Source: Escherichia phage vB_EcoS_P1338
DNA length: 41,129 nucleotides
Sequence record: PP882707.1
Strand: one strand, 5' to 3'
The notes under the pieces are model-generated. The model did not search any database, was not told the DNA's origin, and saw nothing but the letters and a program-made list of their open reading frames with translations. Position 1 is the first letter of the stretch; the number at the start of each line of letters is the position of its first letter. Below, piece by piece: positions 6,915-23,558 of the stretch. The translations under genes and the position numbers were made by a program.

Positions 6915-9900
6915 TTACTTCTTGTCAGCCTTAATGTGAACACCGTTGGCCTCATAGAACTTAATGAGCATCTGCTGAGAGATTGGGTCGTTAGGAATCA
7001 TCTCTCGGTGGGCATTCATCAAGCCAGTCATCATCTCACGCTCGGTCACTTTGTTAGGAGCCATAAGGACACCATAAGCATTTCGACCAGCAGCAAGAGT
7101 GGCACCAGCGAAACCAAGAGCAGGAATCTGTTCACCAATAGCGCCCATAATGGAATCACCCATGTCACGAGAAGTTACCGCCTTATTGCGTTCACGCTTG
7201 TCATCACCTTTCGGTAGAATCGTAGAGCGAACCATAAGACCTTGGTCGTAACCCGCAGCACCCATAGCGAAGTTAGCGATACTCAGAGGCGACCCAAGGT
7301 GTGAACTTCGGGAGGCCGCTGCATAGGCAATCATCTTCGGGTCGAGAGCTTTCTTCAAGTAATCCTTCTGTTGCTCTTTAGGAAGACCAGCAGATTTCAA
7401 GTGAGCCTGTGCCACGTAGTAGGAACCGGCAAGGCCACCAGAGATAGCATAGGTCAGAGCCATGTCCATAGCGCGATGGTTCTTAAAGGCTTCGTTGCCA
7501 GAGCGGATAAACTTAGAGTTCATCGACTTGATGACAAACGATTTAAACTGAAGGACTAACTTAGCGGTAGCGCCAAACGCATGGGAATCCTGTAAGGAAA
7601 CCTTATGAGGTCGGAGCATCGTCTCATCAGCAACCTTGTCAGCCAATCGCCATAAGTCCATAGCACGAGGGTCATTAGCCAGCTTACGCTTGTCCTTAAA
7701 TGTGAACTTACCGTCTTCCCCACGGGTAACGTTCTCACGGATGAGAGCCTGAATGCCTTCCCACTGTTCCTTAGAGATACTCGCAGACTTCAGCATGTCA
7801 CCTTTAATCCACTTGTTGGCACCCTTGCCAGTAATAGCATGAGTTACCACATCACCCATCACGCCCTGCCGGGCCATGTCCAGAAGGTAGTTTGACGTAC
7901 CATTGAGGAACTTGGTCAGAGGTGAGCGAGCCGCCAGTTCTTGAGTTGTGTGCTTAATAGAACCAACAACCTTAGCTGCAACATCAGGTGTATCAGTTGA
8001 CTCACGGAGTCGCTGAATGATGTCTTGACGTGTCGGTCTGATTAAGTCATCAAACTCTTTACCGAACACCATAGAGTGTAGTTCCTTAAGTTCCTTACCA
8101 GAGACTGGCTTGTTGCGGAACGCTAAGTCACGCAGTACCGGAATGCCATGCAGCATCGCACGGGTGTTACCCTTCGACAACATACCGGAGATTTCGGTTA
8201 GGTTCTGCAAGCCCATATATGCGTTCTTCGTAAAGAAGGACATATCGGACAGGGCGCGAACCATAGTGTCACCTACAGTATCCTGATTACGTCGAGCACG
8301 ACCAGTGAGAATCTTAACGGTATCCTTAAGTGCTTCCACTTCACCTTTCATCGTGCCCTTCCCTTCTGACTTCTTATCGAGAGCCATGATGGAATCCTTC
8401 AGTTCAGCAGTGGTCTTCCCTGTGCCACCCATGATAGCAATGTCACCATCAACGCGGCGGTCATATGCTGGCATCACATGCTTCATATCGAAGTCACGGA
8501 GGTCATTCACAGAGAACTGTTGTCCGTTAGGGAGCGTTACAGGCATGTCAGAATCGAACAGGTTACGGGCTTCAAGGAACGAGTTGTTCTCAATACCCAC
8601 GAGACCCTCAATGTTATCGTCAATGACACTTGAAGAGTTGAACTCATCTGTCTTCGCAATACCATAAGCCTTATCGCTGGCATGTTTCATCACCATCTCT
8701 TCGGTTACAGCCTTCGGGTCGATGCCCAAGGTCTCCGCTAAGTGCTCATCTACACGAGCCTTAACTTCTGGACGTGAACGGTAAGAGGTCATCCAGCTTG
8801 CAGCGATTGCTTCCTGTAAACCATCAGAGCCACCAAGAGCCTGTGAGTACAACTGCTTGGCTTCCCGTGAGTACACATGAGGAACGTAAGTCCCTTTGTG
8901 ACGACTGTTAGGGAAGATGGAAGTTGCCTTGTTACCGAACATCGACGGGTTCTCCATCATCTCACGCTTGAGGTCAAAGTGTTCCTTCATGATGTCCATC
9001 ACCTTACGCTCTGCCTTGGTCAAGTTAGCCTGAAGTTCAGGACGCTCGATAGCCACAGCAACACGACGATAGATTTCTTGACGGGCACCTTGAGCACCAC
9101 TCTTGAACATGCCCACAGACCACTCAGGGTCAGCCATAGCTTCCTTCATTGCACCATAGAGGTCATTGTAGGTTCGCTGGTTGGTACTGTGAAGTCGCTC
9201 TTTAATGTCGGAGGCAGTGGCCCCAAACTTACCATGTGAGCCAGACTCCATACCTGTAGGTGAGCGCACTAAGTCCTTAGCGAGACCTCGGATTTCAGCG
9301 TGTTCTGAACGTAGAGTTCTCAAGCCGATTTCGCTTAGTCCACGCATAGGCAATCCCCAAGCAGCACGTTCAGGGTCCACTTCAGCGAACTCTCTGGCTG
9401 TCATAGGGTTCGCTAGGTTGGTATCACTAATAATGGAACCATCACGCAGCACTACCGCACCCGGTTCAGTTTCGAGAGGTGCATACTCAACGCCGTTGTG
9501 CTGTGAGAACACTCGGTCTTCACTAGGAGGCATACGACTTGCATCATATCCACCAGTGTTACGGGCAGTCTCACGAGCCTCGAAGCGCATCTGTGTAGCA
9601 GAAAACGGGTTCTCAATCTGTTCAGCACCAGACTTACGGAGACCCGCAGCAACACCATCAGCAACCGCAGTGAGTCCCCCAGCAAGCAGCATACCAGCAA
9701 GAGCAGCTTCCGCATAGTGAGCATGACCACCAGCAATGGATGTGCGCAGACCCTCAGAGGCAACGTTGAGTGCACCAGCTTGAGCACCAACCATCAACGC
9801 CTTGTTCACCAGCTTGAATCCCTTGGCTGTAGTCCCTGCTAGTGGGACGTAGGTCAAAGGGTCCACACCAGCACCAATCAGGCCAGCAGACAGCTTGGCA

Positions 9901-10862
9901 CCAAGTCCAGCTTCAGCAGCCTTAGCGTCAGCCTCGAAGTTCTCGTTAGCCAGCTTGATTAGCTCATCAAGGTTCTCAGCGGAACCGCCAAGCACAACGT
10001 TCATGTACGCAGGGTTCTTCACTTCTGTGCGAATCTTATCGAGTTCTTCAGGCGACCAAATATGACTATTAAACCATGTCGGTTGAAGTACATCAGTGAG
10101 CACATCAAAACCATTGTCACGCTTACCAGCACGGAAGGCAACACCCAATGTTGAGTTGGAGAGTTCTGCTTCAGCAGCACTACCGAATCCGAAGAAGGTT
10201 GAACGCTCATTGGCTTCGTCAAGAGTTGTTCCTTTTGCTTCCCAATAGTCTTTACCGAACGGCTGATTGGGAGCGGCCTGTTCTTTACCTTGAAAGGACA
10301 TTGAGTGAGACTCAGGGAGTTCTGTAGTTACCTTTCCTTTCTTCCCGATACCACTCATAGCAGCATCGAACGGAATCCCTTTACCCTTTGGGGTGATACC
10401 ACCGAAGGACTCAATGTCACCACTCTTAGGAGACTTAGCGACATCCAGAAGTGAGCGCAAATAGTTACGCCCTTCATCCCCAATACCAGCAAAGTTACCG
10501 GAGTCGTAGGCTTCCAGTTGAGGCTTACCATTTTGGCCTTCGCCTTGGTTGTACGCAAGGGCAGCTTTCAGTTCGTCCCCGTTGTATTTCTTAACGAGGT
10601 CTGCAAGGTAACGAGCACCAGCATCAATAGACTTAGCCGGGTCGTTGAAGTCCTCATCGTTCTGGAGACCGTAAGCCTTACCAGTTGCCTTGGTGAACTG
10701 CATGACACCTCTCGGTCCTGTTGGCGATTGAGCCGTAGGCTTAAAGCGGGATTCTACCCAACCGACCTTCCGAAGAAGGCCATAGGAGACTCCATGTGTG
10801 TCAGCAGCTTGTTGGAATAACGCATCATATTCATGCGGTTCGTTCGGGTTATACTTATCCAC
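6915..10862 (-). CDS. gp16: internal virion protein D with N-terminal lytic transglycosylase domain
   Basis: 1315 aa (T7 gp16 about 1318); GTG start preceded by GGAGG; N-terminus MDKY...GVSYGLLRKVGWVESRF...GVMQFTKATGKAYGL is the SLT motif. Confidence 0.95.
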   Translation of the reverse strand: MDKYNPNEPHEYDALFQQAADTHGVSYGLLRKVGWVESRFKPTAQSPTGPRGVMQFTKATGKAYGLQNDEDFNDPAKSIDAGARYLADLVKKYNGDELKAALAYNQGEGQNGKPQLEAYDSGNFAGIGDEGRNYLRSLLDVAKSPKSGDIESFGGITPKGKGIPFDAAMSGIGKKGKVTTELPESHSMSFQGKEQAAPNQPFGKDYWEAKGTTLDEANERSTFFGFGSAAEAELSNSTLGVAFRAGKRDNGFDVLTDVLQPTWFNSHIWSPEELDKIRTEVKNPAYMNVVLGGSAENLDELIKLANENFEADAKAAEAGLGAKLSAGLIGAGVDPLTYVPLAGTTAKGFKLVNKALMVGAQAGALNVASEGLRTSIAGGHAHYAEAALAGMLLAGGLTAVADGVAAGLRKSGAEQIENPFSATQMRFEARETARNTGGYDASRMPPSEDRVFSQHNGVEYAPLETEPGAVVLRDGSIISDTNLANPMTAREFAEVDPERAAWGLPMRGLSEIGLRTLRSEHAEIRGLAKDLVRSPTGMESGSHGKFGATASDIKERLHSTNQRTYNDLYGAMKEAMADPEWSVGMFKSGAQGARQEIYRRVAVAIERPELQANLTKAERKVMDIMKEHFDLKREMMENPSMFGNKATSIFPNSRHKGTYVPHVYSREAKQLYSQALGGSDGLQEAIAASWMTSYRSRPEVKARVDEHLAETLGIDPKAVTEEMVMKHASDKAYGIAKTDEFNSSSVIDDNIEGLVGIENNSFLEARNLFDSDMPVTLPNGQQFSVNDLRDFDMKHVMPAYDRRVDGDIAIMGGTGKTTAELKDSIMALDKKSEGKGTMKGEVEALKDTVKILTGRARRNQDTVGDTMVRALSDMSFFTKNAYMGLQNLTEISGMLSKGNTRAMLHGIPVLRDLAFRNKPVSGKELKELHSMVFGKEFDDLIRPTRQDIIQRLRESTDTPDVAAKVVGSIKHTTQELAARSPLTKFLNGTSNYLLDMARQGVMGDVVTHAITGKGANKWIKGDMLKSASISKEQWEGIQALIRENVTRGEDGKFTFKDKRKLANDPRAMDLWRLADKVADETMLRPHKVSLQDSHAFGATAKLVLQFKSFVIKSMNSKFIRSGNEAFKNHRAMDMALTYAISGGLAGSYYVAQAHLKSAGLPKEQQKDYLKKALDPKMIAYAAASRSSHLGSPLSIANFAMGAAGYDQGLMVRSTILPKGDDKRERNKAVTSRDMGDSIMGAIGEQIPALGFAGATLAAGRNAYGVLMAPNKVTEREMMTGLMNAHREMIPNDPISQQMLIKFYEANGVHIKADKK

Positions 10863-16683: not shown

Positions 16684-17274
16684 TTAGCGAGACAGCAAAC
16701 CACCAGTGAAGGCATCACCGTCAAGCATGTTGAAGTTACCGAAGTCTAACTCGTATTCGGTGCACTGCATTTTGGCTTCCTGTTCCTCTTCAGCTAAGAC
16801 AGCATCAATCTCAGGGGCACCAAAGAATCGGTTGTTAAACTGACGAGCGGCCTTTGTGACAATCCAATGGCGGAAGCACTCAGGCATCTCATAGAACTCT
16901 CGCATTCGGATGATAGTCACAGTGATAGGGTCTTTGAAGACATCAGTGCGGTTCTCTCGGTCATACACATAGCCGCCACGGTTGACGTAAGCGGTAGTAC
17001 CTCCTTCAGAGAACACAGCAAGGTAGTCGGACATGTAGGGAATCAGACCGTTGAACATATCAGGTAGCAACTGTTGGCCTTCCTCGATGTTGAACGTCCA
17101 GCCCTTGGACTGAATCTGACGGTTAATCTTATTGAGTATTCGGCGAGCGTTAGCAACGTCAGCATTAGCATCACCCTCCAGAGTGGACACAGGCGGTTCA
17201 CCGATAGAGGCCAAGATGTCATTGACCGCATTCAACTCTTCGCCAGTCTCTAGGGTAGTCTCATAGGAACGCAT
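16684..17274 (-). CDS. gp11: tail tubular protein A
   Basis: 196 aa, same length as T7 gp11; [41 protein letters not shown] nearly identical by recollection. Confidence 0.95.
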
Positions 17275-17282
17275 ATTGATTT

Positions 17283-17305
17283 CCTCCCATTAGTGAGTCT
17301 ATTAG
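17283..17305 (-). promoter_or_regulatory. divergent T7-type promoter-like element immediately upstream of gene 11
   Basis: minus strand CTAATAGACTCACTAATGGGAGG; core GACTCACTA retained, upstream half shifted/divergent; downstream of the Tphi-like terminator. Confidence 0.45.
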
Positions 17306-17311
17306 TGGTAC

Positions 17312-17353
17312 GAAAAAACCCCTCAAGCACCCGCGAAGGCACCCAAGGGGTTT
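17312..17353 (-). terminator. Tphi-like intrinsic terminator after the capsid gene
   Basis: minus strand AACCCCTTGGGTGCCTTCGCGGGTGCTTGAGGGGTTTTTT; GC-rich hairpin with G-U pairs plus U-tract, closely resembling remembered T7 Tphi. Confidence 0.85.
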
Positions 17354-17365
17354 CATATAGTTTAC

Positions 17366-17509
17366 TTACTGTTCAGCAGCCAGTTTCGCCGCTCTGTTAG
17401 CAGCACGAGTACGAGCAGCTTTCTGTTGTGGCGTTAGCTCTTGCTCAACTTCAGTAGGAGACTCAGTGTCCCCTACGAGTTTGCGAGAAGTTAAGCCGTT
17501 TTGAAAACC
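17366..17509 (-). other. capsid 10B-type -1 programmed frameshift site (G GTT TTC) and ~47-codon -1 frame extension
   Basis: GGTTTTC heptamer 5 codons before the capsid stop; the -1 frame stays open for ~47 codons and ends just before the terminator hairpin. Confidence 0.6.
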
Positions 17510-18105
17510 AGCGCACCTACTGCTTCAGGACGCAGACCACCGTGACCCATCGCGTACTTAGCGATAATCTGGTCAGCCTGATAGTTGGCACGACGAGCAC
17601 GTTCCAGCGCCATATCTTTCAACTTAACAGTACCAACGGCAGAGCGGTGGCAGAACAGACCGACCACATTGTTCAGAGCAACCTTATCATTGCCAGTAGC
17701 AGTCGCAGGGAATGCGTGTTTCTGTTCAGAAGGTGCATCTTCACGGTCATTACCAGCACCACCAGCGGTCAAATGCGGAACTTCAATAACTTCGAAGCCC
17801 ATGACGTTGCGGATAGAACCGGTAGACGGGTCAATCAGCGCCTGATAGTTTGCAGCGTTAGGCATCAGAGCCGCCAGAATCGCAGAGTAGTTATCAGGGG
17901 TGGTGTAGAAGGTACGGTCCGCAGACGGAACATAGTTCTTAGTCAGACGTGCACGAGCCAGAGTCAACTGTGCAATGATAGCCTGACCCAGCTTAACTTG
18001 GTCGCCTTGCAGGTCAGCCGCAGCGCCTACTTCCAGAACACTTGCAGTACCTAAGCCAGCGATGTTCTCGTTGGAAGCAGCCGGAAGGTTACACAATTTA
18101 GCCAT
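17491..18105 (-). CDS. gp10: major capsid protein, C-terminal segment (second of two ORFs)
   Basis: 204 aa; NENIAGLGTA...ILAALMPNAANY...RSAVGTVKL...ERARRANYQADQIIAKYAMGHGGLRPEA matches the T7 gp10 C-terminal two thirds by recollection. Confidence 0.9.
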   Translation of the reverse strand: MAKLCNLPAASNENIAGLGTASVLEVGAAADLQGDQVKLGQAIIAQLTLARARLTKNYVPSADRTFYTTPDNYSAILAALMPNAANYQALIDPSTGSIRNVMGFEVIEVPHLTAGGAGNDREDAPSEQKHAFPATATGNDKVALNNVVGLFCHRSAVGTVKLKDMALERARRANYQADQIIAKYAMGHGGLRPEAVGALVFKTA

Positions 18106-18467
18106 TTTTCGGAACGCACGTCATAGTGGTTCATTGCGTCTTCGATGTCGTAAATCAGAACGTCAGCAGTCAGCAGGCCATCAATGTTAATGGTCTTCTC
18201 AGTGTGCTTCATGTCTTTACGTTTGTCATCGAGGTTCTCACCCGGTTGCAGATAAGCAGCTTTGGTACGACCCAGCACAGGGAACTGCGCGGACTTACCG
18301 GACTGAATAGAACGCACGAGGTGTTTGTTCATAGTTACGGAGGTACGGGTAAATGCAGTCAGAACTTCACCGCCGAAGACCTTCAGGAACAGAGCCAGTT
18401 TATCACCAGCGCTCATGCCTTTACCTTGGTCCTTACCAATCTGTTGTCCACCAGTCATGTTAGCCAT
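18051..18467 (-). CDS. gp10: major capsid protein, N-terminal segment (first of two ORFs; last 18 codons are out-of-frame read-through)
   Basis: 138 aa; MANMTGGQQIGKDQGKG...DKLALFLKVFGGEVLTAF...DIEDAMNHYDVRSE matches the T7 gp10 N-terminus, then diverges (KWLNCVTFRLLPTRTSLA) after an A5 run. Confidence 0.9.
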   Translation of the reverse strand: MANMTGGQQIGKDQGKGMSAGDKLALFLKVFGGEVLTAFTRTSVTMNKHLVRSIQSGKSAQFPVLGRTKAAYLQPGENLDDKRKDMKHTEKTINIDGLLTADVLIYDIEDAMNHYDVRSEKWLNCVTFRLLPTRTSLA

Positions 18468-18639: not shown

Positions 18640-19548
18640 TTAGAACTGACTGTACATCATCTTGCGCTCAACTTCCGCACGGAACTTACTGTCGTGGCGA
18701 TAGCGAGGGTCGGACATTGCAGCAATCATCTCAGCCTGTGACTCAAAGCCAGACTGTTTGGTGCGTACAGGTGCAGCAGGTACAGCACGTTTAGCAATGC
18801 TACGAGCAGCAGGTTTACCGAAAGTCTTCGCACGGCTTGCACCAGCGAGATTCACGATAGCCTTCACAGTGGAAAGGTCACGGTTCTCCAAGGCACTAAT
18901 CAGAGACTCAGCAGCATCCGGGTTGGACACTTCGAGGTGATTGTAGATTGCTTGGAACTGTGCTTCACCGCCAGCATACTCCATAACGGACTGAACATAC
19001 TGTTCTACCAGAGCTTCCTGACCACGGATGTAGGAGTCAACGAAGGACTTAGAGTAACCAGCTTTAGCCAGTTCTTCATAGGACTCTTCGGACAGACCAT
19101 CTTCGCCGTATTCTTGCTGGATTCGGACAATGGTTTCTTCTGACAGACCACGTTCGGCAGCCTGATTGACCATCTCTTCGAACCCTGCTTCGTGCTCTTC
19201 GAGTTGACTTGAGGCTTCGTTCAGTTCATCTGGAACGTCACCAACTGGTTCAAACTCTTCGGAGCCTTCTTCGTCACCTTCGGAGTAGTCAATGTCTTCT
19301 ACAGCCTCTTCCGGTTCACCATCAGTGGAGATACGAATCTCAGTGCGGTCTTCGTCCTCTTCACCAAACGGGTCATTACTACCATAAGGGTCGTCATTGT
19401 GTGCTAACTCAATGGAGTCATCGCCATCACGGGCAGCAACATCAAGTTCAAGCATTGCCTGTTCGTGGTCAGTCGGAGTAGACCCGCCAACAACCGCAGA
19501 GTTCACACCGAAAGATGCGTAAACGTCAGCATTAGATTCACCAGCCAT
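18640..19548 (-). CDS. gp9: capsid assembly (scaffolding) protein
   Basis: 302 aa, highly acidic; MAGESNADVYASFGVNSAV...SYIRGQEALVEQYV...KAMSDPRYR matches T7 gp9 by recollection. Confidence 0.95.
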   Translation of the reverse strand: MAGESNADVYASFGVNSAVVGGSTPTDHEQAMLELDVAARDGDDSIELAHNDDPYGSNDPFGEEDEDRTEIRISTDGEPEEAVEDIDYSEGDEEGSEEFEPVGDVPDELNEASSQLEEHEAGFEEMVNQAAERGLSEETIVRIQQEYGEDGLSEESYEELAKAGYSKSFVDSYIRGQEALVEQYVQSVMEYAGGEAQFQAIYNHLEVSNPDAAESLISALENRDLSTVKAIVNLAGASRAKTFGKPAARSIAKRAVPAAPVRTKQSGFESQAEMIAAMSDPRYRHDSKFRAEVERKMMYSQF

Positions 19549-19602
19549 ATTTGTATCTCCTTTGATAATGAAATTTAGAACTCAAAGGGAGGACGTATTG
19601 TC

Positions 19603-19625
19603 TCTCCCATTAGTGAGTCGTATTA
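19603..19625 (-). promoter_or_regulatory. T7-type promoter upstream of gene 9 (phi9)
   Basis: minus strand TAATACGACTCACTAATGGGAGA; its first three bases are the gene 8 stop codon. Confidence 0.85.
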
Positions 19626-21224
19626 AATCATGCCAGCCTGTTCAGCCGCAGCTTGCATGTTCTCAGGGCTTGCAGTAGCCAGAGCACCAGCACCAGCACC
19701 AGCAGACGCAGCAGCGTTCTCCATAGCAGTGCCTTGAGCGGCCTCAGCCATTTCCTGTTGTTTCTCTTCAGGTGTCTTAAGGATACCAGAAGTGTCGATG
19801 CCGATAGCGTTCGCAATGCGCAACTTAATGGTCGCAATGTTGATGTCCGGGTCATTCTGCATAGGAGCAAGAGCAGACCACGCAGCAATACAGCGTTCCA
19901 GCTTATCGAGGTCTTGACCACGACCCAATGCTTCCATCCCGGTACTGATAGTTGGCTCAACGGCCTCTTTCGGTAACTCAGGAATCTGATTGGTTGCTTG
20001 AAGTTGCTTCAGAAGGACACGAACCATAGGCAACTGAAGTTCCTGTGAGAGAATCGAATAGACACCGCCAAGGGTATCTTCCAGTTCCGATGCAACATAA
20101 CGAATCTCTTCGGCTGTCACACGCTCACCAGTACGCTGTACCGCAGAGTTCAACATAAAGGCATAGGAAAGTCGACCTTCAATCTGTTCACTCACAGCTT
20201 TCGCTACAGAGAAGTCAGCGGCCTTTTCCAACTGAAGGAACGAGATGTCTTCTGGACGACCAGACACAAAGTCACCTGTCTGTGCTTTCGTTAAGCGACG
20301 AACCTGTGTGATACCAGCCGGGTTAACCAAGCCGATAACTTTAGCACTAATCATTGACATCTTAACGATAGCTTCTTGGAGGTTCTCAAGGGACCGTAAG
20401 TCACCTAAGTATTCCTCACAGTAAGAACGACCATATGACTCTCCGTCAATACGCACCATGCGAACCGGGATATACGGACAAGCGTCCACCGGATAAGAAG
20501 CATCTGTGCCATCAACTTCAACGCCATCAATCTCTTCGTACTTGAGGTACTCACCAGATTCTTCGTCAAGATAAATGTGTGTGTACACATCAATCATTTC
20601 GTCGCCTTTATGTTCCTGACCTGAGTCCATAGAGTTTCTTACGTCTTCTGGAAGTGCTGCATAAGCAGTCTTATCCAAGGTCACAATCTGTAGTACCGTG
20701 CCGAATGCGTCTCGTTGGACAACATAAGAAGACAAGCGGTATAGCTTCATGGGATTGTAAGTGCCTTCAGGTTCAGGAATGTAGAGCAGAGCGTTACCTG
20801 CAACGACCAACTGCTTGAGGGTCTCAAAGAGTGTCACACGGTATGAGTTTGACTCGATGTAGTTCATCAAGATTCGCTCGACCATTGAGAGACCTTCTTC
20901 GACCTTTGCTAGTTCGGCTGGCTGTGCAACCAATTGTTTCGCTTCGAACTCAGAGATGGTTAGCTTCATCCACGTCTGCATAGGGAACAGAGCGAGCATG
21001 AGCTTAGAGGCCAAGTTGTTCAAGCCACGAGCACCAACTGCTTGCCACGGAGTGGTATAGTCAGTAGAGGCGTTGTCGGAGTCTTTAGGGAACAACGAAG
21101 GGATGGTGTACTTCGCACAGTTTTCCGCACGGGTCTCATAGGAGTTCCGGTCGTTCTTCAATGCGTCATACACCGCCTTGGCACCATTCTCCGCGAAGCC
21201 TTCACGTTTCTGTGAGCTTGCCAT
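19623..21224 (-). CDS. gp8: portal (head-to-tail connector) protein
   Basis: 533 aa; YTIPSLFPKDSDNASTDYTTPWQAVGARGLNNLASKLMLALFPMQTWM matches T7 gp8 by recollection. Confidence 0.97.
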   Translation of the reverse strand: MASSQKREGFAENGAKAVYDALKNDRNSYETRAENCAKYTIPSLFPKDSDNASTDYTTPWQAVGARGLNNLASKLMLALFPMQTWMKLTISEFEAKQLVAQPAELAKVEEGLSMVERILMNYIESNSYRVTLFETLKQLVVAGNALLYIPEPEGTYNPMKLYRLSSYVVQRDAFGTVLQIVTLDKTAYAALPEDVRNSMDSGQEHKGDEMIDVYTHIYLDEESGEYLKYEEIDGVEVDGTDASYPVDACPYIPVRMVRIDGESYGRSYCEEYLGDLRSLENLQEAIVKMSMISAKVIGLVNPAGITQVRRLTKAQTGDFVSGRPEDISFLQLEKAADFSVAKAVSEQIEGRLSYAFMLNSAVQRTGERVTAEEIRYVASELEDTLGGVYSILSQELQLPMVRVLLKQLQATNQIPELPKEAVEPTISTGMEALGRGQDLDKLERCIAAWSALAPMQNDPDINIATIKLRIANAIGIDTSGILKTPEEKQQEMAEAAQGTAMENAAASAGAGAGALATASPENMQAAAEQAGMI

Positions 21225-21237
21225 AGTGCCTCCTTAA

Positions 21238-21528
21238 TCAGATATTCAGACCACCGCCAGAACTGCGAGCGACACTCAGAGATTTCTTGCCACCAGCACG
21301 GGCTTTCTTCTTACCTGATTCAGTCTGTGCATCATCTTCGGTCTCTACGTCACCCTTTGTGGGTGCTTCGATAATCTGTGCCGGAGGTGGAGCGGCCTGT
21401 TCCATTACCTGAACACCAGACTTCTCGCCTTGACCAAGTACACCGCCTACAGCACCAACAGCGCCTTTGGCAACCTTCTCTACTGGCTTAGTGATTTTCT
21501 TAACGGCCTTTTTGATTTTCTTACCCAT
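21238..21528 (-). CDS. gp7.3: tail-associated host-range protein
   Basis: 96 aa; MGKKIKKAVKK...DAQTESGKKKARAGGKKSLSVARSSGGGLNI matches remembered T7 gp7.3. Confidence 0.85.
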   Translation of the reverse strand: MGKKIKKAVKKITKPVEKVAKGAVGAVGGVLGQGEKSGVQVMEQAAPPPAQIIEAPTKGDVETEDDAQTESGKKKARAGGKKSLSVARSSGGGLNI

Positions 21529-21530
21529 GA

Positions 21531-21917
21531 TTATACCCTCTTGAATACGTTTCGAATTGCCCCATCGTGTTCATGTGCACAACGGGAGACCCACTGGCAA
21601 CCTCTACGAGTCGCCTCAGCTAACACCCAGCGCCAGACCCAAGGTGCATACCCAGAGCGTGGCTTAAGGACTATATTGGTGATATCCAATATGTCACCCT
21701 TATGGTGTATGTCGTTGCTGATACAGAGTGCTACATAAGCCACAGGATAACCCTTGGCATTCTTAAAGTAGAACTCTTCGTACCCAGCGTCATCCATAAG
21801 TTCATCCACGTAGTCAGCATACTCGCTTAACGTAGTGAACCCTTCGGGCAACCCTAAGTGCGCCACAGTCCAGACAATAGCTGCCGCACGTTCTGTGCAC
21901 TTATGTACTGTAACCAT
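21531..21917 (-). CDS. hypothetical protein at the T7 gene 7 position
   Basis: 128 aa, ATG start, assigned by synteny only. Confidence 0.6.
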   Translation of the reverse strand: MVTVHKCTERAAAIVWTVAHLGLPEGFTTLSEYADYVDELMDDAGYEEFYFKNAKGYPVAYVALCISNDIHHKGDILDITNIVLKPRSGYAPWVWRWVLAEATRRGCQWVSRCAHEHDGAIRNVFKRV

Positions 21918-21935
21918 TTACCGAACTCCTCCTAA

Positions 21936-22214
21936 TTATCTCTTCTTAAAGACACTGGTACGAATACCAGACTTAGTTTTATTCTTGGCTGCATTATCAG
22001 CCTTCTTGGACTTCTCAACGGAGTCATCCAGTTTCACCTTCAGGGACTTCTTGCCACCAGTTGGCACCTCAGAAGAGGTTCCGGTGTCCTTATCGGTATC
22101 ATCATCTCCACCAAAGAGGATGCCTTTCGGTTCCTCAGTGAGTGGTGCAGGGTCTACCGCTCGGACTTTGTTAGTGTCCACTTTAGGTGTTTTAATCTTA
22201 GGCGACCAGCACAT
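21936..22214 (-). CDS. gp6.7: small virion protein
   Basis: 92 aa; MCWSPKIKTPKVDTN... resembles remembered T7 gp6.7 N-terminus; synteny. Confidence 0.8.
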   Translation of the reverse strand: MCWSPKIKTPKVDTNKVRAVDPAPLTEEPKGILFGGDDDTDKDTGTSSEVPTGGKKSLKVKLDDSVEKSKKADNAAKNKTKSGIRTSVFKKR

Positions 22215-22233
22215 CAGATTACCTCCTGTTAGA

Positions 22234-22479
22234 TTAGGATTCTGCCTGTTCCTTACGGATTGCCTCCATGTCGTCTAAGGTTTGAGACGCATAGTTTAGA
22301 CCCGCGAGGAACCCAGCTATGTAGCTTTCAGACCACCCAGCCTGTTTCAATCGGTTGATTAGACCAGACTGAATAGCATATCCAGCATTGTATTGAACCT
22401 GTAGGTACTCCATAGTTGCACGAGGCACATTAGGAATATCTTGTGGGTTCTCCATGTACTTCTTAATAGGGGTTAACAT
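22234..22479 (-). CDS. gp6.5: hypothetical protein at the T7 gene 6.5 position
   Basis: 81 aa; follows a T7-type promoter with a TAACTTTAAGGAGA leader; synteny. Confidence 0.75.
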   Translation of the reverse strand: MLTPIKKYMENPQDIPNVPRATMEYLQVQYNAGYAIQSGLINRLKQAGWSESYIAGFLAGLNYASQTLDDMEAIRKEQAES

Positions 22480-22533
22480 AGTTAATGTTCTCCTTAAAGT
22501 TAGAACTTAAAGTAGGTATCATATAGGCACCCC

Positions 22534-22556
22534 CCTCTCAATAGTGAGTCGTATTG
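22534..22556 (-). promoter_or_regulatory. T7-type promoter upstream of gene 6.5 (phi6.5)
   Basis: minus strand CAATACGACTCACTATTGAGAGG. Confidence 0.8.
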
Positions 22557-22584
22557 ATTTCACTGTCGAGAAGAATGCCTAGAG

Positions 22585-22671
22585 TTACACACTCTTAGCA
22601 ATAAGCGCAGCCCAAATCATAGAGAAGGCTACGGCTGTGAACATCACGAGCGCAACTGTTCCGGCGACCAT
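22585..22671 (-). CDS. small hydrophobic peptide overlapping the 3' end of gene 6 (gene 6.3 position)
   Basis: 28-codon ORF MVAGTVALVMFTAVAFSMIWAALIAKSV found by hand; overlaps the gene 6 end as T7 gene 6.3 does; AAGGA about 10 nt upstream. Confidence 0.4.
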   Translation of the reverse strand: MVAGTVALVMFTAVAFSMIWAALIAKSV

Positions 22672-23558
22672 AGGTAAATTTCCTTGTCGATAAAGTTGTA
22701 CTCTTCGAAACGAAGGATGCGAGCCATCTGGCCTTGCTTAATGATTTCCTCTTCGGTCATCCCAGCTTTGGCACCAAGGGTCACAATCGCTTCCCACAAG
22801 GTTCGGTCTCCCATGTCAACCTTCTTCCATTCGAGGACTGTCTGACCCTTACGGGCACCAGACTTAAAGGTTTTCTCAACCTGTTCAAAGGCATACGGAT
22901 TCTCCAGCCACTCAGCGGTGGTCTCGCCCCAGCCCGGAATGCCACCGTAGCCATCCGTCAAGTCACCTTTAATGGTCTGATAGATGTGCCAGTAGTCGGC
23001 AGTCGTCTGGTCTTGAGTCAAGATGTTACCAGTAGTGCACCACAAGAAGTCACAATCAGGGATAGTCTTAAAGTCCTTATCACAGGAGACCAGCACAGCC
23101 TTATTGAAACCAAAATGTTTAGCACCAGACCCAATGATTCCCATTACGTCATCACCCTCTAAGCGAGGCTCAAGGATAGACGTCCAGTCCTCACAGGCTT
23201 GAACACGCTCGATGAACGCACGGTAGCCTACAGGCTTACGGGATGCCTTACGGTTCTCCTTGTAGGTAGGGTCCACCAGTTCCTTACGCCAGTTCACAGA
23301 GTCAGTGAAGGCCAATACGATAGGCGCATCACGCCAAGCCTTCTTGCGACCGGCATAGGACTTGATGGAGTCTACCAGAATGTTCCACGCTTTCCCGTGG
23401 TCACACTCTAAGGTCCACACATCGTCACCCCAATCGGTCTCGACTTCACTTGCTGCCATCGCTTGGAATACCAGCCAGTCCCCATCCATTACGAGAACAC
23501 CCTTATCGGATTTACCTTGGCGAATCTCATAGAACTCATTCAGAGTTAAAGCGCTCAT
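22644..23558 (-). CDS. gp6: 5'-3' exonuclease
   Basis: 304 aa (T7 gp6 about 300); position between the gene 5 cluster and the virion genes; ATG start. Confidence 0.95.
   Translation of the reverse strand: MSALTLNEFYEIRQGKSDKGVLVMDGDWLVFQAMAASEVETDWGDDVWTLECDHGKAWNILVDSIKSYAGRKKAWRDAPIVLAFTDSVNWRKELVDPTYKENRKASRKPVGYRAFIERVQACEDWTSILEPRLEGDDVMGIIGSGAKHFGFNKAVLVSCDKDFKTIPDCDFLWCTTGNILTQDQTTADYWHIYQTIKGDLTDGYGGIPGWGETTAEWLENPYAFEQVEKTFKSGARKGQTVLEWKKVDMGDRTLWEAIVTLGAKAGMTEEEIIKQGQMARILRFEEYNFIDKEIYLWSPEQLRS

Follow-up and report, generated by a model that had tools for sequence, protein, structure and literature searches.

The gene 10A/10B frameshift of T7-like phages is already known and experimentally established. 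T7 makes a 345-aa 10A and a 398-aa 10B, the difference being a 53-aa extension, and the T7 record annotates a joined 10B CDS. In the 2016 recoding review, the shift site of T7 gene 10 is given as G_GU U_UUC (PMC5009743). According to the same review, T3 and phiYeO3-12 produce their 10B by a -1 shift near the capsid 3' end, which adds a surface extension, and the T7 tail, unlike that of T3, is not Ig-like (PMC5009743). The T3-type shift takes place at lysyl codons, not at Phe (PMC2579914). That the extension is surface-exposed in T7, as the first-pass annotation of the locus studied here had stated, is supported by a display paper in which C-terminal additions to gp10 are exposed (PMC1635266).

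Direct protein evidence is available for Kvp1, a Kluyvera phage (Berlinvirus). SDS-PAGE gave a 43.6 kDa band above Gp10, and tryptic peptides from it, identified by MALDI MS/MS, cover residues 327-372 of Gp10B, which the authors read as a programmed -1 shift at TTTTCA (PMC2579914). Records of Kvp1, BP12A, BSP161, 285P, BA14, FE44 and other phages carry annotations of 10B, a minor capsid protein or a slippage site.

The window analysed here is the whole 41,129-nt stretch of Escherichia phage vB_EcoS_P1338 DNA (PP882707.1), and all features described below are on its minus strand. Its gene 10A ends in ...GGT GCG CTG GTT TTC AAA ACG GCT TAA. This end contains a slippery heptamer of the X_XXY_YYZ type, G GTT TTC (17509..17503), which stands in the 0 frame as G_GUU_UUC with the codons GTT and TTC, and the GTT is five codons ahead of the 10A stop TAA (17493..17491), just as the first-pass annotation had it. 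A ribosome slipping back by one base here would read GGT TTT CAA AAC GGC..., which translates to QNGLTSRKLVGDTESPTEVEQELTPQQKAARTRAANRAAKLAAEQ, and the predicted frameshift junction peptide reads ...GALVFQNGLTSR. The resulting coding extension of 10B (17366..17503) ends at a TAA (17368..17366); the frame is open, as had been claimed, but by translation for 45 codons rather than about 47. It had also been said to stop just before a terminator hairpin, and folding agrees: the terminator stem begins 12 nt beyond the -1 stop.

That hairpin is a Tphi-like intrinsic terminator with an 18-bp stem, CCCC in its 5' arm and then a T-run (17313..17353, from folding). It is G+C-rich, a terminator scan match spans the upper part of its stem, and the Kvp1, BA14 and ETEP21B records list it as a terminator. 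The stem and the start of the T-run are identical in three aligned relatives (P151, Kvp1 and BP12A). Beyond it lie the phage RNA polymerase promoter phi11 (17283..17305, recognised by alignment and homology with the Kvp1 annotation) and the gene 11 ATG at 17274. The phi11 segment is present in the window, Kvp1 and BP12A and missing from P151, A7 and several others.

The likeness to T7 is close. The capsid family is the same, in T7, too, G GTT TTC AAA stands five codons from the 10A stop (so the site is of the T7 10B kind, as first described), and the T7 extension likewise ends just before the Tphi terminator with its CCCC-bearing 5' arm. The tail motif LTPxQxAARTRAANKA is common to both, whereas the tails show no sequence relationship in their first half. 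With 45 aa, the window's extension is shorter than that of T7 (53 aa), and the distance from slip site to terminator is ~150 nt versus >200 nt. The cassette of Kvp1, a member of the same genus, shows 95.8% identity over the 96 nt queried, and heptamer, hairpin, motif and terminator are the same. The Kvp1 tail is 3 codons longer, ending ...NKARKEAELAATE, and its gene 10 is intact, unlike that of the window. The T3 type differs in two ways: its lysine slip (A_AAG or CCA_AAG) contrasts with the Val-Phe site G GTT TTC here, and its Big_2 Ig-like extension contrasts with a window tail that has no Pfam match.

At roughly 90% probability, we read the locus as the cassette with which T7-like phages produce 10A and 10B from gene 10 by programmed -1 ribosomal frameshifting. 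In the proposed mechanism, the major capsid protein 10A would come from the bulk of ribosomes, which read ...GTT TTC AAA ACG GCT and terminate at TAA. A minority would slip back one base with tRNA-Val and tRNA-Phe on G_GUU_UUC, the slipped tRNAs would re-pair on GGU_UUU, and -1 reading would run on for 45 codons. The product would be the minor capsid protein 10B, with a charged C-terminal tail carrying LTPxQKAARTRAANKA on the capsid exterior. A stem-loop (described below) would sequester the 10A stop and meet the mRNA entry channel while the heptamer is decoded, and the downstream terminator, which is implicated in T7, may contribute to slippage.

Genome context and the interruption of gene 10

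Over the capsid region, the window shares 99.5% identity with Escherichia phage P151 and 88-98% with other members of the genus Berlinvirus (Studiervirinae), among them Kvp1, BP12A, A7 and P483; the cassettes of P151 and P483 are identical to that of the window. Because identity is lower elsewhere (79-97% to P151, and at most ~93% to anything in the phage collection over 19000-23000), the window is a distinct Berlinvirus and a relative of T7. The genome is mosaic with respect to P151 (79-98% identity by segment, with several segments lacking a match), and it is in reverse orientation and a different permutation relative to the P151 record.

The host ORF encodes a Gp10A-like major capsid protein (PF21703, E 1.2e-27 for the N-terminal fragment and 1.3e-66 for the C-terminal fragment). 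Alignment with P151, Kvp1 and BP12A places a 58-nt deletion (3x19+1) in it, with the junction at 18108|18107, and this splits the gene. The deletion is clean, falling directly after ...CGTTCCGAA, and P151 bases 9872-9929 are absent from the window. The N-terminal fragment in the ORF list (18051..18467, 138 aa, ATG at 18467) is in frame as far as the junction and then continues out of frame to a TAG at 18053-18051; it matches positions 1-60 only of the PF21703 profile. The C-terminal part of gene 10A, 204 codons in its own frame (17491..18105), matches profile positions 81-279 and the T7 10A structures 2xvr/3j7w (E 5.5e-88). Profile positions 61-80 are missing from the window's gene 10, and about 20 residues, YTAQLGESLALAADGAVLAE in P151, are lost. 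Since the deletion breaks the frame, neither full-length 10A nor full-length 10B can come from the sequence as written, in which ribosomes starting at the true ATG would end at 18053-18051, short of the slip site. The junction also makes GAA AAA TGG, where slipping back by one base within the A-run would bring the frame back, though this is probably irrelevant.

The deletion could mean that the cassette survives only as a relic, the genome being defective: the lesion would be real, no functional capsid would be made and the intact slip site would go unused. This would fit a deletion whose length (3x19+1) splits the ORF and removes a block of the capsid profile, and the core genes other than gene 10 are all of normal length, which speaks against a generally error-ridden assembly. 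However, the junction sequence has no match in viral or metagenome contigs, none of the top 40 database relatives shares the deletion (each aligns in at least two pieces), and the flanks match P151 at 99.5% identity and carry no second lesion. No record of the 138-aa truncated product was found either. T7-like phages form no particles without gp10, and a genome of this kind would persist only as a defective or helper-dependent variant, or else be an artefact. We consider a relic unlikely; the most likely source of the deletion is a defect of assembly or sequence, and a defective variant is possible.

The cassette itself is intact in the window, and its identity is unaffected by the deletion. 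The earlier prediction of a 10B-type extended capsid protein thus stands for the cassette and its lineage and fails for the literal sequence, in which gene 10 is interrupted; 10B in this particular phage is a prediction from sequence.

The stem-loop downstream of the slip site

The heptamer is followed by a 6-nt spacer, AAAACG (17497..17502), which in alignment is the most variable stretch of the cassette, holding variable sites 8-11, and then, 6 nt 3' of the heptamer, by a conserved bipartite stem-loop (17443..17496) found by MFE folding and covariation. The outer helix GCUUAACUUC/GAAGUUGAGC (17496-17487 with 17452-17443) has the 10A stop codon within its 5' arm. In the MFE fold it is followed by a 10-nt bulge (17486-17477), an inner helix GUAGGGGAC/GUCUCCUAC (17476-17468 with 17462-17454) and a 5-nt loop (17467-17463). 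The fold has a z of -3.4 to -3.6, and of 249 same-length segments spread over 10 kb of that strand, none goes as low; the lowest is the terminator (z -3.15). Across 39 sequences folded 3' of the site, z ranges from about -0.3 to -4.7, with most between -1.5 and -3.5.

Comparison among relatives supports the structure. Only 5 sites vary in the 54-nt stem-loop, versus 45 in the 150 nt of upstream coding sequence. The changes that occur lie in the loop, the bulge or the terminal pair, or are G-C/G-U interchanges. Across 14 distinct variants, 98.5% of cells hold standard pairs, compared with 30-54% when partners are slid. Double changes occur at 4 pairs, and the observed values were attained in 0 of 500 shuffles, with the reservation that all of these double changes come from the fPS-59 lineage and that the structure was derived from the same sequences. 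In fPS-59, 16 of the 54 positions are substituted, 11 of them inside stems, and 19 of 19 pairs are kept (P ~2e-5 under random placement). Pairing is kept there even though 9 of the 17 residues encoded by the stem-loop differ, so it is the RNA and not the peptide that is conserved in this half of the extension.

A T7-group counterpart can also be drawn, with an outer helix AGUAAUGC/GUGUUACU that likewise starts at the stop codon; GGUGGCC-UCAAC-GGUCGCU lies inside it. Pairing reaches 97%, but the changes are one-sided, there are no double changes and shuffles are uninformative. The two lineages therefore differ in their evidence: the stem-loop has compensatory support in the window's lineage, whereas the T7-group sequences appear compatible with pairing rather than demonstrating it. 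As to structure, the authors of the Kvp1 paper name just a 'pseudoknot' at the terminator, and the proximal stem-loop is mentioned neither there (PMC2579914) nor in the searched passages of the recoding review (PMC5009743). A search of 17200-17700 against Rfam found no family, the only match being a chance-level one to mir-451 (E 7.2).

The E. coli dnaX signal resembles this arrangement in having a heptamer, a short spacing and a stable stem-loop, and a stable helix 6 nt past the heptamer is the classical geometry of -1 stimulation in dnaX and in viral signals. The resemblance stops there: the dnaX heptamer is A_AAA_AAG, its shift truncates the product while the shift in the window extends it, and the window has no demonstrable Shine-Dalgarno stimulator at the right distance. 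The one candidate for such a stimulator, an AGGTG 4 nt before the heptamer, was rejected: the Gly/Ala codons there fix its sequence, and its spacing is wrong for stimulating a -1 shift. Third positions upstream of the heptamer vary freely in relatives.

Some stimulator 3' of the heptamer is to be expected, because about 10% of translations shift in wild-type T7, whereas GGTTTTC followed by foreign 3' sequence gives <1% shifting (PMC1635266). Published T7 work points to the distal terminator CCCC rather than to a proximal hairpin and thus against a role for the stem-loop; the 2016 review lists this long-range effect, exerted from >200 nt downstream, as unexplained (PMC5009743). The window's terminator retains CCCC, and a proximal stem-loop with covariation support is present as well. 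On balance, we see about an even chance that the stem-loop boosts slippage, which makes it a plausible stimulator that has gone undescribed. Slightly more tentative is our suggestion that it is the main cis-stimulator in Berlinviruses and that an equivalent helix, also starting from the stop codon, may operate in T7. As a separate observation, GGGG in the inner stem could pair over long range with the terminator CCCC, and this G-run is not universal among relatives.

The -1 frame as coding sequence

Neither the heptamer nor the length of the open frame says much by itself. The heptamer alone is not enriched in the window (3 copies versus 5.5 expected). A 45-codon open stretch arises by chance in random sequence with p ~0.1, i.e., (61/64)^45, and with p ~0.005 in the -1 frame of long genes from this genome. 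ORF length on its own is therefore weakly informative, and significance comes from position and from conservation in relatives.

Conservation was assessed in 80 capsid loci from IMG/VR and in 79 loci selected by a DNA pattern for the ARTRAAN motif. In every one of 40 distinct T7-like sequences, the motif lies in the -1 frame with respect to 10A, and GTTTTC is found in 39 (the exception, L115/L062, has GGTAAAG). The first-pass annotation had asked whether the -1 frame is kept in close relatives; it is open from slip site to tail in 38 of the 40, with substitutions on third positions. One of the two interrupted sequences is the Yersinia phage Yep-phi (L009/L128, 38616 bp), in which a G-to-T change makes a TAG after 15 extension codons and also breaks one outer-helix pair; the other is L100. 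Both still carry the motif downstream of the interruption, so the interruptions are recent. The two resemble natural losses of the full tail, and the full 10B tail is dispensable in at least one natural phage.

The conserved motif of the extension, LTPQQKAARTRAANRA (17390..17437), is shared with relatives and with T7 10B. In the wider set covering all lineages, LTPxQKAARTRAANKA is nearly unchanged across 27 distinct 48-nt DNA versions. All 16 third positions of this block vary, versus 6 of 32 first and second positions, and the pattern holds outside the codons fixed by the search pattern (9 of 9 versus 6 of 18). In the Berlin group (14 distinct sequences), the 46 nt 3' of the hairpin contain 7 variable sites, and 7 of 7 are -1-frame third positions. 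The window's extension matches the T7 10B tail over the LTPxQxAARTRAANKA core (BLASTP, E 4e-9) and phrog_12582, a PHROG 'head protein' family (E 3.5e-13); a Pfam search of the tail found no domain. Because variation is concentrated on third positions and 27 DNA variants encode nearly one peptide, the -1 frame bears the clear signature of purifying selection at the protein level, and with no start of its own this is the signature of recoding.

These data bear on the idea that the -1 ORF is untranslated and that the region is conserved only as RNA structure or terminator context. The 54 nt past the spacer would suit that idea, being more conserved than the upstream coding sequence (5/54 versus 45/150 variable sites) and forming a supported structure. 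Beyond the hairpin, however, all variation falls on -1-frame third positions, and the many DNA variants encode essentially one 16-aa peptide. Extension peptides have also been detected in Kvp1 by mass spectrometry (PMC2579914). We consider conservation as RNA only to be very improbable. The Kvp1 result has a further consequence: the mass-spectrometry test for junction peptides proposed in the first-pass annotation can be regarded as, in effect, already done in a congener.

We rate just as poorly the idea that the extension forms an independent small gene, translated from a start of its own. The ETEP21B and nasanit records do contain short CDSs labelled 'minor capsid' or 'head protein', and the PHROG family matching the peptide consists of short 'head proteins'. 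However, the Kvp1 product of 43.6 kDa is of capsid length (PMC2579914), and the GTG start in ETEP21B arises from an A-to-G change where the window has GTA. The window's -1 frame is closed upstream by a stop 7 codons before the slip site, and ATG, GTG and TTG are all absent between that stop and the end of the frame, so the extension does not show up in the ORF list. Lacking a start codon and with a stop so close upstream, the extension ORF cannot be initiated independently, and this route was ruled out.

Still less credible is a longer product made by RNA polymerase slippage on the T-run rather than by ribosomal slippage. Known polymerase slippage requires much longer homopolymer runs, and the run here is just four T. 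Although either route yields the same protein, and the review treats both mechanisms together (PMC5009743), BA14 has in place of the site A_AAA_AAG, a classic ribosomal slip heptamer, and a hairpin at 6 nt suits the geometry of ribosomal frameshifting.

Diversity among relatives and implications

The slip site itself evolves, as two further Berlinviruses show. In BA14 (L165, 256-275) it reads G GTT TTA AAA AAG, with a dnaX-type A_AAA_AAG in frame that no other relative has, and in ETEP21B (L166, 256-275) it reads G GTT TTT C; both variant sites lead into the same -1 tail.

Tails are more diverse. Extensions of 83-176 codons in the -1 frame are found in L017, L019-L021, L025, L026, L036, L037, L042 and L047, and likewise in L054, L060, L063, L065, L066, L070, L073, L078 and others. 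The L017-type and L036-type extensions (the two submitted to Pfam) are Big_2 Ig-like, as in T3, with E 1e-15 to 8e-20. A third kind of about 90 aa (L006, L014 and L015) has no Pfam match. Because Big_2, ~90-aa and other kinds of extension differ across relatives, the post-capsid tail module is swapped from lineage to lineage, with the frameshift strategy retained throughout.

The T7-like capsid genes of L023 and L024 (IMG/VR UViG_3300034127_000003 and UViG_3300034349_000001) have GGTTTTT near the capsid stop and an open -1 frame of 470 codons, which starts with a Big_2 Ig-like domain (E 1.5e-10) and continues for about 390 aa without a Pfam match. A GDSL-like 'FEGDSL' motif was seen in it by eye. 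The product could be a capsid-displayed enzyme made through frameshifting.

For annotation, the main reading calls for a joined 10B CDS in the record of this phage, as in Kvp1 and T7, in place of the short orphan ORF with which some relatives are annotated. The 58-nt lesion in gene 10 bears on any use or deposition of the genome. More generally, the 10B tail is the natural display position on T7-like capsids.

Of the features described here, the stem-loop is the only part with research value, as a candidate, and one that can be mutated with ease, for the 3' signal that stimulates a classic frameshift. The context dependence of T7 gene 10 frameshifting was still listed as unresolved in the 2016 recoding review (PMC5009743); a role for the stem-loop, if true, would help to explain it.
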